Shown: positions 36,818-41,861 of the stretch, in pieces
Layout: the number at the start of each line of letters is the position of its first letter
Numbering within the stretch: position 1 is the first letter of the stretch
Assembly (NCBI RefSeq): GCF_028368995.1
Contig: NZ_JAQNDL010000002.1
Location: forward strand, 481,724 to 545,723
DNA length: 64,000 nt
Origin: Nannocystis bainbridge
Lineage (GTDB): Bacteria; Myxococcota_A; Polyangia; Nannocystales; Nannocystaceae
Direction of reading: 5' to 3'
The notes under the pieces: model-generated
Seen by the model: the letters and a program-made list of their open reading frames with translations, nothing else
Database searches by the model: none
Told to the model about the DNA's origin: nothing
Position numbers and translations under genes: made by a program

Positions 36818-37990
36818 TCACATGCGCGGGGCCGGGACGCGCAGGACGAAGGTCGAGCCGCGCCCGGGGGCGCTGGTGACTTCGATGTCGCCGCCGAGCA
36901 GGCGGGCGAACCGATGGGCCAGCGCGAGGCTGACGCCGCTGCCTTCGTGGGAGCGCGTGGGCCCGTCGTCGAGCGGCTGGAAGGCGACGAACAGGCGCGG
37001 CAGGTCGGCGGCCGCGATGCCGACGCCGGTGTCGGCGACCCGCAGCTCGAGCCACGGGAGGTCGTGCACGGCGATCGCGGCGAGGCGGACCTCGACGCGG
37101 CCGCGGTCGGTGAAGCGGACCGCGTTGTCGACGAGGGTGTGCACACAGTGGGCGAGCATCGCGGGATCGGTCAGGCAGACGAAGGCCGTCGGCAAGGGCG
37201 CGAGCGTGAGCGCGTCGCCGCGCGCGCGGGCCTCGAGCTCGCAGTGGGCCACGGCCTCGCGCACCAGCGTTGCGACGTCGACGGGGACGCGCGCGGGCTG
37301 GACGACGTCGGCCTCGACGCGCGACAGCTCGAGGATATGCGTCAGCGTGCGGACCAGGCGCGCGGCGGCCCGCCGGATTCGCTCGGTGTCGCCGTCGATC
37401 GCCGCCAGGTCGCCCTCGGCCGCCGACTCGCGGATCAGCTCGGCGTAGCCGACCACGGCGTTGAGCGGGGTCCGCAGCTCGTGGCTCATGTTGAGAAGGA
37501 AGCGGGTCTTGAGCCGATCGGCGCGCACGGCCGCGTCGCGGGCGCGGGCCAGGTCCTCGTAGAGGCGGGCGTTGTCGATCGAGGTGGCGATCTGGGCGGC
37601 GAGGTGGCGCAGCAGCGCGAGCCGGCCGCTGCCGAAGGTGTGCGGGGCGAGGTCGTTGTCGAGGTAGAGGACGCCGAGCAGCTCGCCGTGGCCGAGGATC
37701 GGCGCGCACAGGACCGAGCGCACGCCGGCCAATGCGGGGTCGCCGGCGAAGTCGTGGTCGACGGCGACGTCGCCGAGGACGACGTCGCGGCGGGTGCGAG
37801 CGACGAAGTGGACCAGCGACTGCGGTAGACCTGGCTCTTCGGACATGGCCCGAGATTGCAAGACGTCGAGCCGCTCGCGGGCGACGTCGGCGGCGGCGGC
37901 GATCTGCAGGCCGCCGTCGCCGTTCAGCAGGACGAAGCAGCGGCGGGCGCCGGCGACCTCGAGCACGGTGCGGACGAGCGCGCAGCAAGC
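36818..37990 (-). CDS. GAF-histidine kinase (HisKA+HATPase_c) module; C-terminal fragment of the frameshifted giant kinase gene
   Basis: GAF-like 'CAPILGHGELLGVLYLDN'. H-box 'NMSHELRTPLNAV'. G-boxes 'DTGVGI', 'GSGVSLAL'. Frame differs by 1 from the upstream fragment. Confidence 0.6.
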   Translation of the reverse strand, partial: ACCALVRTVLEVAGARRCFVLLNGDGGLQIAAAADVARERLDVLQSRAMSEEPGLPQSLVHFVARTRRDVVLGDVAVDHDFAGDPALAGVRSVLCAPILGHGELLGVLYLDNDLAPHTFGSGRLALLRHLAAQIATSIDNARLYEDLARARDAAVRADRLKTRFLLNMSHELRTPLNAVVGYAELIRESAAEGDLAAIDGDTERIRRAAARLVRTLTHILELSRVEADVVQPARVPVDVATLVREAVAHCELEARARGDALTLAPLPTAFVCLTDPAMLAHCVHTLVDNAVRFTDRGRVEVRLAAIAVHDLPWLELRVADTGVGIAAADLPRLFVAFQPLDDGPTRSHEGSGVSLALAHRFARLLGGDIEVTSAPGRGSTFVLRVPAPRM

Positions 37991-40900
37991 GGTCGAGGAC
38001 CAACTCGCCGGTGATCGCCCGGGTGCTGCGGAGGAGCGCGGCGACGTCGATCGCCTCGGCGCCGGCGCTCGGCGGCGGGGCGTCGGCGGGGGTCGGCGCG
38101 GGCACCGGGGCGGGCGCGGGCGCGGCGAGGCCGGGGAACTCGGCGCGCAGGCGGGCAGACAGGGCCGGGGCGCCCCAGCGGTCGTAGGTCGCGGCGGCTG
38201 CCCCGAGGTACATGTGCGAAAGGACATGTGATTCGCGGGCGCGGGCGTGGCGGCCGGCTCGCTCGAGCGCGAGGGCCTCGATCCGCAGGTGACCGGCGCG
38301 GCGGGCGGCCTCGACGGCGCGCGGGTAGAGGAGGGCGGCCTGGTCGTGGTCGCCGCGGCAGCGGGCCAGCTCGGCCTCGACGAGGAACAGCCGACCCTCG
38401 ATGTTGGCGGGGCACAGGGCGGCCCAGCGGCGCAGGTGCCCGAGCCAGGCCTGGGCCCGCTGGCGGGCCTTGCGGGCCAGCGGCTGGCCGCGAGCGGTGA
38501 GCACCAGCAGCGGCAGGGTGATCTGATCGACGAGCAGCAAGGTGCCCTCGGCGCGAGCCCAGCGCAGCCGCTTGGAGAGGACGAGGGCCTGATCGATGGC
38601 GCCGTGGTGGTAGAGGAGGGCGAGCTTGATCAGGTGGTAGGCGGAGGCGAGGGCGCGGCTGTGCGGGCCGAGCTCGTCGACGAGGGCGTCTTCGTCGAAG
38701 TCGGGGCCCTCGAGCGTGGTCGGGCCGTCGGTCTCGCCGCGCAGGGCCAGGGCCATGCGCTCGAACAGGAGGTGCCAGTGGCGCTGATCGAAGCCGGGCA
38801 TGCCGACGCCGATCGGGGCGTGGGCGCGGGCGCTGGCCAGGAGTTGATCGATGTCGCCGACGCCGAGCCAGCGGGCGTGCATGACCCCGGCGGAGATGTA
38901 GAGCGCCATCGACGAGGCGCCGATCCGGCTGGCGTGCTGCAGCTCGCGCTCGAGCCGCGGGACGATGATGGCGACCGGATCGAGCCAGGAGGCGACGTAG
39001 ACGCCGCAGTAGTTGGCGAGCTGGGGGCCGAGGCGCGGGTCGGGGAAGCGATCGGCGAGCGCATAGGCGACGGCGTGCAGGGCCCGCGCGCCGGCGGCGT
39101 CGTCGAACATGTGCACGTGCCCGAAGGCGTAGAGGGCGACGGCGATGGCGGACTCGCCGTTGACGCCGTGGCGCAGCGCGAGCGCGAGGGCCCGCAGGCC
39201 GTAGAGCAGCGCGAGGTCGGGCTGGTGGTGGTAGGCCGAGACGCAGATCGTGCAAAGCAGCCGCAGGGCGCAGCCGATCCGCGGGTCGCGGACGGCGGGC
39301 AGCGCGGCCAGGTCGCGCAGCGAGGTGCGGCCGCGCAGCCAGCGGATGGCCGCGAGCTCGCGCAGGATCGCCAGGCGCGAGGCGTTGGCGGGGACGTGGA
39401 CGCCGAGCAGCGCCAGGCCGGCGCGCCCGGCCGCCAGCGCGGCGTGGATGTGGCCGCGATCGGTCTCGAGCGCGACCTTGAGGTCGTGGACGCCGGCGCG
39501 GTCGACGTCGTCGCGGGCGCGGGCCAGCAGCGGGGCGAAGCGGGCGGCGGCGGCGTCGGGGTCGCCGGCGAAGTGCTCGCACTCCATGCAGTCGCGGGCG
39601 AGCGCGAAGGCGAGGTCGTAGCGGGTCTCCCACGCGTGCTCGGGCAGCAGCGCCAGGCCCTGGCGCAGCAGCTGCACCGCGGTGGTGAAGGCGGCGGCGC
39701 GCATGGCCTTGCGGCCGGCGGCGAGGTCGAGCTCGGCCAGGCGCAGGCGCTCGGCGGGGTCCTCGATCCGCTCGGCGGCGAGGTTGAGGTGGCCGACGAT
39801 CTCGAATAACATGTCCTCGAGGACAGCCGACGTGGCGCCGCGCAGCAGGCCGCGGCCGAGCTCGAGGTGGAGGCGCTGGCGCTCGTCGGCGGCGAGGCCG
39901 GCGTAGGCGGCCTGCTGCACGCGGTCGTGCACGAACTCGTAGACATCGACGTCGACGGCGAGCACGAGGCCGCGCTCGATCGCCTGGGTCAGCGCGGCGG
40001 TCACGTCCGCGGGCTCGCGGCCGAGCAGGCCGGCGAGGCGGCCGGCGTCGAAGCGCGCGCCGACGCAGGCGGCGGCCTGCAGCGCGCCGCGGACGTCGGG
40101 GCCGAGGGCGGCGAGGCGGCGGGTCATGAGCGCGACGATGTCGGCGTCGGGGGCCGCGCGGGCGGTGGCGGCGGCGTCCCAGGCCCAGCCGTCGCGCTCG
40201 GGCGACCACACCAGGAGGCCCTGGTCGAACAGCCAGCGCAGGTAGGCGCGCACGAACAGCGGGTTGTTGTCGGTGGTGGCGGCGACGACCGCGGCCAGCT
40301 CGGCGGCCTGTCCTTCGGGCCAGGCGAGCGTGTCGCCGATCAGGCGCTGGACCTCGGCGGGGGCGAGCGGTCCGAGGCGGACGCGCACGTCGGCGGCGAG
40401 GCTGCGCAGCGGGTGGGCGGCGGCCAGCTCGTCGTCGCGGTAGCTGCCGACCAGCAGCAGGTGATCGAGGTCGGGCTCGCGCGCGAGCTCGTCGTAGAGG
40501 CGCAGGCTGGCGGCGTCGGCCCACTGCAGGTCGTCGACGGCGATCACGAGCGGGGCGTGCGGGCCGGCGAACACGCGCACGAGGCGGGTGACGGCGGCGT
40601 GGAAGCGGCCCGCGGCCTCGGCGGGCACGGCGACGGTCGGGCGCGGGCGGGCGCCGATCACCAGGGCGAGCGCGGGCAGGACGTCGGCGAGGCCGGCTGC
40701 GCCTTCGCCGAGAGCGGCCTCGAGGGCGGCGCGCACGGCCGCGAGGCGCTCGTCGGGTTCGGCGAGGGCGCGGCGCAGCAGTTGGTCGAGGGCGGCCAGC
40801 AGGCCGGCGTACGGGGTGGCTTTCTCGACCTGCTCGAAGCGCCCGCTGACGAACACGCCGCCGGCCTCGCGCACGGCCCCGGCGAAGGCCCGCAGCAGCG

Positions 40901-41861
40901 CCGACTTGCCGGCGCCCGAGGGCCCGGCGACCAGCGCGAGGCCGCGGGCGCCGGCGCGCACGGCTGTCCAAAGGGACAGCAGGGCGGCCAGCTCGCGCTC
41001 GCGGTCGAACAGGGTCGCGGGCAGCTGCAGGCCCGGCGGGCGGTCGCGCGCGGCCGGCTCGAAGCGCGGCAGCTCGCCGCGGGCGAACGCGTCGCGGCAG
41101 CGGGCGAGGTCGTGGCGCAGGCCCTCGAGGCTCTGGTAGCGGGCCTCGGGGCTCTTCTCGAGCAGGTGGAGGATGACCCCGGACAACGTGTCCCCGAGGT
41201 CAGGTGCGAGCGCGACCGGGGCCGCGGGCACGCGCGCGAGGTGGGCGTGGACCAGCTCGAGCGGGTCGTCGCTGGCGAACGGCAGGCGGCCGGTGAACAG
41301 CTCGTAGAGGGTGACGCCGAGCGCGTAGTAGTCGCTGCGCGGGTCGACGTCGCGGCCGGTGCGGCCGGTCTGCTCCGGCGACATGTACTGCAGCGTGCCC
41401 TCGCCGGCGGCCGCGGCGGCGAAGTCGATCAGCTGCACGCGCTCGCCGTCGCCGTGGACGATGATGTTGGCCGGCTTGAGGTCGCGGTGGACGACGCCGG
41501 CGGCGTGGACCCGCGCGAGCGCGCCGCAGATCTCGAGCGCGAGGTCGAGCCGGGCCACCAGCGACAGCGCGCGCCCCTGGCGGAACCGGTGCAGCGAGGC
41601 GCCGCCGATGTCGCGCAGGACCAGCACCGGGCAGCCGTCCCAGCGCTCGAGCGCGAGGACCTCGGGCACGGCCGGGCCGGCGCAGCGGCGCAGCAGCTCG
41701 GCCTCGCGCTGCAGCCGGGCGACGCCGGGGCCGTCGCTGAACTCGCGCCGCAGGGCCTTGAGGATCGCGCGCGCGCCGTCGCGACGGCGGAAGCCGCGGA
41801 ACACCTGCGAGGTGCGCCCGTCGTGCAGCTGCTCCGCGAGCTCGTAGTCGCCGGCGGCCAT
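37984..41861 (-). CDS. Ser/Thr protein kinase - AAA/STAND NTPase - TPR fragment of the giant signalling protein (reading frame broken near 37975-37995)
   Basis: Kinase motifs 'HRDLKPANII', 'DFAAA', 'SPEQ'. Walker A 'GPSGAGKSALL'. Long TPR/helical region ending '...LLRSTRAITGELVLDRLLRA' immediately before the frame change. Confidence 0.65.

Follow-up and report, generated by a model that had tools for sequence, protein, structure and literature searches.

A gene for a dual protein kinase is broken by the absence of two nucleotides (nt) in the deposited genome of Nannocystis bainbridge BB15-2. The gene lies on the minus strand (36818-41861) of the stretch of 64,000 nt analysed here (assembly GCF_028368995.1, contig NZ_JAQNDL010000002.1, positions 481,724 to 545,723; hereafter the window, in whose numbering all positions are given), and the bases are missing between positions 37977 and 37978. 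The two open reading frames (ORFs) that meet at this point are, judged from their sequence, halves of one gene with a predicted repaired product of 1681 amino acids (aa). We favour, at a probability of about 55%, the reading that the deletion stems from an indel left uncorrected in the consensus of a draft assembly made with HGAP from PacBio reads alone. A genuine and very recent pseudogenisation is a serious contender at less than even odds.

Reading frames at the locus

The minus strand between 36750 and 41900 is occupied by a single ORF (frame A) of 1716 codons when counted from a GTG, or of 1703 codons when counted from the ATG at 41861 (MAAGDYELAEQ...), which is the start used by the orthologues. 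A preliminary description of the window, made from the sequence, had reported that this ORF reads sensibly and then turns into Arg-rich nonsense, and both its translation and its GC content by codon position bear this out. The protein is sensible as far as ...ITGELVLDRLLR(A) and becomes rich in Arg and Pro thereafter. The coding part of frame A (37980-41861, minus strand) comprises 1294 codons by translation, from the ATG to the CGC (Arg) codon directly before the lesion. The out-of-frame tail that follows (36750-37979, minus strand, 410 codons) consists of 36% Arg (148 of 410) and 17% Pro (70 of 410), and its GC content at the first, second, and third codon positions (0.94/0.79/0.50) has a non-coding pattern.

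A second frame (frame B, +1 relative to frame A) begins with LVRTVLEVAGARR... at the CTC codon at 37978 and ends in a stop at 36818-36820. This segment (36818-37978, minus strand, 386 codons plus stop) has the canonical coding pattern of codon-position GC (0.80/0.48/0.95), and Pfam matches confirm the earlier observation that it continues as GAF, HisKA, and HATPase_c domains down to 36818. In full, the frame B ORF is longer (469 codons, 36818-38227, minus strand). Its first 83 codons (37979-38227, minus strand) are a spurious N-terminal extension, in which frame B is read across genuine frame A coding sequence, and their codon-position GC (0.64/0.95/0.80) shows no coding pattern. Two independent frame plots of the GC content at third codon positions (GC3) place a switch of frame at about 37950-38300, and the same plots contain no comparable signature elsewhere in the window.

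The wrong frame remains open for 409 further codons because GC3 is about 95%; the GC content of the window is 72.5%. The chance of meeting no stop in frame A over 386 codons, calculated from the base frequencies at each codon position, is 0.28, and the length of the open frame is thus unremarkable.

The missing bases at the junction

Blastn alignments with orthologous DNA show the lesion in the window as CTGCGCGC^TCGTCC (minus strand), the caret standing between 37977 and 37978. The codons at the junction are CTG CGC GCC CTG GTC (L R A L V) in N. punicea, CTG CGC GCC CTC GTG in N. radixulma, and TTG CGC GCG CTG GTC in N. pusilla; the window has CTG CGC GC-- TC GTC and is 2 nt short of all three. 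The sequence context, previously described as homopolymeric, is instead a short GC-rich tract without a long homopolymer, with CCC in N. punicea and N. radixulma and (GC)4, contained in GCGCGCGC, in N. pusilla. The lost bases could be two from a run of three (CCC to C) or one unit of (GC)4; since the third position of the Ala codon is synonymous, the ancestral state of the deletion is ambiguous. Adding 2 nt or removing 1 nt brings the frame back, and adding 1 nt does not. Of the earlier proposal that either the insertion or the deletion of a single base would rejoin the frames, the deletion alone stands.

The same break appears at the protein level. In tblastn alignments, residues 1-1288 of the N. 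punicea orthologue match 41861-37983 in frame -3, and residues 1290-1675 match from 37981 onward in frame -1. The break falls inside the GAF domain, since frame B matches the profile from position 9 onward and leaves positions 1-8 to frame A; the lesion sits in the first helix of the domain. We also made global alignments of eight orthologous coding sequence (CDS) pairs between the window and N. punicea, covering 11.4 kb. The 2-nt gap is the only one that breaks a frame, and the nine other internal gaps are all multiples of 3.

The seamless join of the two frames at the protein level is the only support for a programmed +1 (or -2) ribosomal frameshift, or for transcriptional slippage, by which the full-length protein would be made from the sequence as deposited. 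A well-known programmed +1 site is that of prfB, which the window site resembles in its net +1 change of frame and in nothing else: it lacks a slippery codon, a stop in the zero frame, an upstream stimulator resembling a Shine-Dalgarno sequence, and conservation. No slippery motif is present around CTG CGC GCT CGT (CCG) and no +1 re-pairing in the P site is available. For transcriptional slippage, the site has no A/T run on which RNA polymerase could slip. The 131 nt downstream of the site are not unusually structured (fold z = +1.08), and 180 of 200 shuffled sequences fold at least as well. The orthologues are all in a single frame, so that no feature of a shift is conserved among them. Without a slippery site, RNA structure, or conservation, programmed frameshifting, which the preliminary description had entertained, is not supported and is the least probable of the explanations considered here.

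Orthologues and synteny

Using the conceptually repaired 1681-aa protein as the query, we found full-length orthologues in Nannocystis sp. ILAH1 (1682 aa, 88% identity), N. punicea (1676 aa, 88%), and N. radixulma (1677 aa, 82%), all with an identical order of domains. More distant relatives include one metagenomic protein at 71% identity and a series of Myxococcales proteins at about 50%, and 2192 homologues were found in total at E <= 1e-10. In a separate scan of genome contigs, the matches listed include N. pusilla and N. radixulma, and neither N. bainbridge nor N. punicea is among them; the N. pusilla Na p29 locus is represented by its C-terminal part, with 91% identity over residues 31-444 of the query of that scan. 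The DNA is uninterrupted at the junction in N. punicea, N. radixulma, and N. pusilla, and the whole gene is a single ORF in N. punicea and N. radixulma, for both of which the DNA was recovered. The join proposed earlier, DRLLRA|LVRTVLE, agrees with all 18 aligned homologues: each reads through LLRALVRT(V/I) without a gap, at identities from 88% down to about 30%. A scan of metagenomes for the junction that allowed 1-3 variable bases gave 0 matches, and exact searches of a contig collection for the 1703-aa product, the 469-aa product, and the ILAH1 orthologue returned no match.

Seven neighbouring genes are shared by the window and N. punicea, encoding a polysaccharide deacetylase, a 352-aa protein, an amidohydrolase, a DUF1918 protein, a DUF4269 protein, a LysR regulator, and AdoHcyase. 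Each of them aligns as one intact tblastn segment, and only the dual kinase splits. The amidohydrolase, DUF1918, DUF4269, LysR, and AdoHcyase genes, downstream of the dual kinase, are syntenic with N. punicea, and three of the seven (amidohydrolase, DUF4269, and LysR) are also syntenic in N. radixulma. On the other side of the gene the two genomes differ. The 352-aa gene and the dual kinase are about 350 nt apart in the window (41862-42215), while the corresponding interval of N. punicea (N. punicea locus 2702-10000) holds four additional genes, about 7 kb in all, one of them for a beta-lactamase-family protein. This block is a gene-block indel between close species.

The comparison bears directly on whether the locus could hold two genuine genes, a Ser/Thr kinase-STAND-TPR protein of 1703 aa and a separately translated GAF-histidine kinase of 469 aa. 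Both proteins are present in RefSeq, and frame B offers possible starts at an ATG (38227) and a GTG (37966). However, no sequence resembling a ribosome-binding site (RBS) precedes any of the six possible starts in frame B, the division would run through the GAF domain, and both the 83-aa extension and the 409-aa tail are non-coding by codon-position composition. Nor is the gene split in any orthologue. The preliminary description had held that orthologues divided at exactly this point, with an intervening start codon and RBS, would argue for two genes; none is so divided, and all run through the junction without a break. With neither an RBS nor a split orthologue, two genuine genes are not supported, and we regard this arrangement as very improbable. 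Because the orthologues are not split, an assembly error and a pseudogenisation, both of which had been proposed at the outset, are left as the live options.

A more speculative variant, to which we attach hardly more than a trace of credence, would accept the deletion as real and have both halves expressed, either as a fission of the dual kinase in progress or as a reversible on/off switch that works by (GC)n slippage. The absence of an RBS, the position of the break within the GAF domain, the lack of split orthologues, and the size of the repeat (only 3-4 units) all weigh against it.

Domain architecture of the repaired protein

The repaired protein begins with a kinase domain of the Ser/Thr type at aa 6-251 (41109-41846, minus strand; Pfam Pkinase PF00069, E = 3.6e-27), for which PknB is the top match among proteins of solved structure (PDB sequences, E = 1.8e-30). 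The catalytic Lys (AILK) and the HRDLKPAN motif (HRDLKPxN) are conserved in the alignment of homologues. In the Nannocystis clade, DFG is replaced by DFA or DFS, the Gly-rich loop is degenerate, and the activation segment falls about 13 residues short of that in cyanobacterial and Cystobacter homologues. The kinase of the window has DFA in place of DFG and the short activation loop, which are common to all Nannocystis orthologues. By this alignment, the short loop and DFA/DFS are a trait of the clade that is independent of the frameshift.

The kinase is followed by an AAA_16 (STAND-type) P-loop NTPase domain at aa 284-471 (40449-41012, minus strand; Pfam PF13191, E = 3.5e-33), with a weak match to nSTAND1. 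Its Walker A motif is GPSGAGKS in the alignment, and a Walker B motif, VIAVDDLQWAD, was read from the translation. For aa 481-1267 (38061-40421, minus strand), an AlphaFold2 model built with 27 homologues as input (pLDDT 90, pTM 0.80) has winged-helix domains and then a long solenoid of paired helices that resembles TPR repeats. TPR proteins are the top Foldseek matches of the model in the PDB (5dse, E = 1.5e-5; the STAND-TPR protein 6mfv, E = 7e-5). No credible Pfam TPR match was found in these middle 787 aa, even at E <= 10, and TPR can therefore be assigned at the level of the predicted fold only. The earlier attribution of kinase, AAA, and TPR domains to frame A is accordingly upheld by Pfam for the first two, as Pkinase and AAA_16, and by the predicted fold for the third.

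The part encoded in frame B carries the remaining modules, all on the minus strand. The GAF domain (37577-37978, Pfam E = 5.4e-16) matches profile positions 9-133. It is followed by HisKA (37310-37510, E = 8.9e-14), whose H-box, MSHELRTPLN, contains the phospho-acceptor His, and by HATPase_c (36827-37168, E = 5e-24) with N, G1, and G2 boxes; the alignment shows conserved DNAVRF, DTGVGI, and GSGVSLA motifs. The intact architecture is thus Ser/Thr kinase, STAND NTPase, winged-helix/TPR-like solenoid, GAF, HisKA, and HATPase_c. Inspection of the gene neighbourhood found no receiver domain and no response-regulator gene adjoining the gene.

Proteins of this kind have been described before. HstK (Alr2258) of Anabaena, reported in 2001 by Phalip et al. 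(cited in PMC2176072 and PMC1262709), has an N-terminal Ser/Thr kinase, a GAF domain, and a C-terminal histidine kinase. The name dual protein kinases (cbSTKIII) comes from surveys published in 2005 and 2007, which list dozens in Anabaena and Nostoc strains (PMC1262709, PMC2176072). Like HstK and the cbSTKIII proteins, the repaired protein carries on one polypeptide a Hanks-type Ser/Thr kinase at its N-terminus, one or more GAF domains, and HisKA and HATPase_c domains at its C-terminus. A cyanobacterial homologue is 30% identical to it over 99% of its length and has both the AAA_16 block and the motif at the GAF junction in common with it. The repaired protein differs from HstK and cbSTKIII in that the Nannocystis clade lacks a receiver domain and has a truncated activation loop and DFA/DFS for DFG, and in that the copy in the window is frame-broken in the deposited sequence. 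The window thus contains a Hanks-type kinase, HisKA and HATPase_c, and one or more GAF domains between the two kinase modules, all the sequence features of a dual kinase except one uninterrupted polypeptide, which is present in every orthologue examined. The gene of the window belongs to the dual-kinase family, either as a broken member or as one that has been mis-sequenced.

Among the best 120 of the 2192 homologues, almost all have the same set of domains, and they come from myxobacteria, cyanobacteria, and Chloroflexi. Having been known since 2001 and being represented by 2192 homologues, the combination of Ser/Thr kinase, GAF, and histidine kinase is not unusual, contrary to the first impression of this gene. 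The middle of the protein has a counterpart in STAND NTPases with TPR arms, of which the MalT/AfsR-type regulators are examples. It resembles them (PDB 6MFV) in its AAA_16 P-loop, winged-helix domains, and long TPR-like solenoid, and differs in that the STAND core lies between two kinase modules and is not linked to a DNA-binding output.

Age and origin of the deletion

To estimate the age of the lesion, we counted lineage-specific nonsynonymous and synonymous changes (N:S) in the window and in N. punicea, with N. radixulma as the outgroup. Upstream of the lesion (1288 aligned codons, 87.7% identity to N. punicea), N:S is 52:69 in the lineage of the window and 42:60 in that of N. punicea. Downstream (386 codons, 90.7% identity), the counts are 11:19 and 11:28, respectively. 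The downstream module is therefore more conserved relative to N. punicea than the upstream part, and its 386 codons contain no stop and no indel. N:S in the lineage of the window does not differ between upstream and downstream parts (Fisher p = 0.68), a comparison of low power with 30 downstream changes. These results indicate that purifying selection has acted on the histidine-kinase half through essentially all of the lineage's history. The lack of decay and the unchanged N:S downstream imply that the deletion is either very recent or artefactual.

An artefact of sequencing is expected to leave no decay downstream, as observed. A consensus indel is also in keeping with the way in which the genome was obtained, from error-prone long reads without short-read polishing. 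The reads of strain BB15-2 came from PacBio Sequel or Sequel II, HGAP in SMRT Link 9/10 gave 5 contigs, and no short-read polishing is described for it (PMC10435759). Indels that fragment genes are known from assemblies made from long reads only (PMC8306402, PMC12007338). In this explanation, 2 nt would be missing from the deposited sequence only, and the organism would make an intact 1681-aa protein, a cytoplasmic dual protein kinase. Judging from the domain families, its STAND/TPR and GAF modules may sense an intracellular cue and govern His autophosphorylation as well as Ser/Thr phosphorylation, and phosphotransfer would proceed to a response regulator unlinked to the gene.

Two observations weigh against a consensus error. 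The usual consensus error of PacBio assemblies is a 1-nt indel in a homopolymer, and the loss observed here is of 2 nt in a non-homopolymer context. There is also no second frame-breaking indel, either in the GC3 frame plot of the 64-kb window or in the 11.4 kb of aligned CDS, so that the local error rate is not obviously high.

The same observations lend weight to the possibility that the 2-nt deletion is truly present in the BB15-2 genome, as a very recent pseudogenisation by replication slippage, for example if one GC unit dropped out of (GC)4 or CC out of GCCCTC. A change of 2 nt in a short GC repeat fits slippage at least as well as it fits a PacBio error, the indel is the sole frame-breaking one in the window, and the lesion stands in the public record. 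At most, a 1294-aa Ser/Thr kinase-STAND-TPR protein with an Arg/Pro-rich tail of 409 aa would then remain, and the GAF-histidine kinase output would be lost. High redundancy of the family in myxobacteria would make such a loss tolerable; the same genome has many paralogues, one of them in the window itself. This paralogue, a Ser/Thr kinase and AAA_16 gene (45264-49199, plus strand, 1311 aa), stands on the strand opposite that of the dual kinase, 3.4 kb away, ends in a proper stop, and is without GAF and histidine-kinase modules. As in a pseudogene, the ORF is disrupted relative to intact orthologues; however, neither relaxed selection nor further lesions were detected downstream, a finding of low power that is compatible with a very young pseudogene. 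The event would thus have to be very young, and artefactual indels are a priori comparable in number or more numerous in an assembly made from long reads only. We therefore hold the consensus error to be the better explanation of the deletion.

The text of PMC10435759 gives ASM2696555v1 for N. bainbridge. GCA_026965555.1, which we take from its number to be ASM2696555v1, is a single contig of 13,228,663 bp and fits strain FL3 (N. punicea) in Table 1 of that paper. The assignment is probably an accession mix-up in the text.

Database records of the two halves

The frame A product counted from the ATG at 41861 matches WP_272087660.1 of N. bainbridge BB15-2 exactly along its whole length of 1703 aa, nonsense tail included; the 410-codon tail and the first 1294 aa (100% identity) both contribute to this record. 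The 469-aa frame B product is identical to WP_373372110.1 of the same organism, annotated as a GAF domain-containing sensor histidine kinase. Since both ORF products are identical to public proteins, the frameshift is part of the assembly as deposited. In RefSeq the locus appears as a pair of overlapping genes and not as one disrupted gene, and neither WP_272087660.1 nor WP_373372110.1 appears to be flagged as a pseudogene in RefSeq or UniProt.

Other features of the window

Other candidate frameshifts in the window, at 5130-7165, 17184-19096, 23677-25759, and 54825-56940, were rejected; these are separate adjacent genes, most with a start or signal peptide of their own. Three tandem tRNA-Ser genes are located on the minus strand at 44372-44675, with anticodons CGA (44372-44458), GGA (44464-44548), and GCT (44586-44675) and spacings of 5 and 37 nt. 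ARAGORN predicts all three, and two of the three reach the Rfam gathering score for tRNA.

A gene at 54966-56201 (plus strand) encodes a 411-aa protein that carries a Tox-PAAR-like domain (PF13665, E = 7e-17) at its N-terminus and whose C-terminal part, about 260 aa long, is uncharacterised. An ORF of 242 aa (56210-56938, plus strand), which begins 8 nt after it, has a weak match to SMI1/KNR4 (SUKH; E = 1e-3). GC content over 54966-56938 is 0.62-0.68, compared with 0.725 for the window. From these features, the two genes look like a horizontally acquired pair of polymorphic toxin and immunity protein.

Implications for annotation and for the dual-kinase family

The entries for this gene in RefSeq and UniProt are two artefactual proteins, of which WP_272087660.1 consists to 24% of out-of-frame Arg/Pro-rich sequence and WP_373372110.1 carries a spurious N-terminus of 83 aa. 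The practical value of the finding lies in annotation hygiene and the correction of these two entries. Its biological weight is small: this myxobacterial genome of 11 Mb contains many paralogous dual kinases, of which the gene is one, and the lesion is an ordinary indel. Where the GC content of a genome exceeds 70%, a shifted frame can run on without meeting a stop close by; gene callers can consequently miss the break, and surveys of domain architecture inherit the error.

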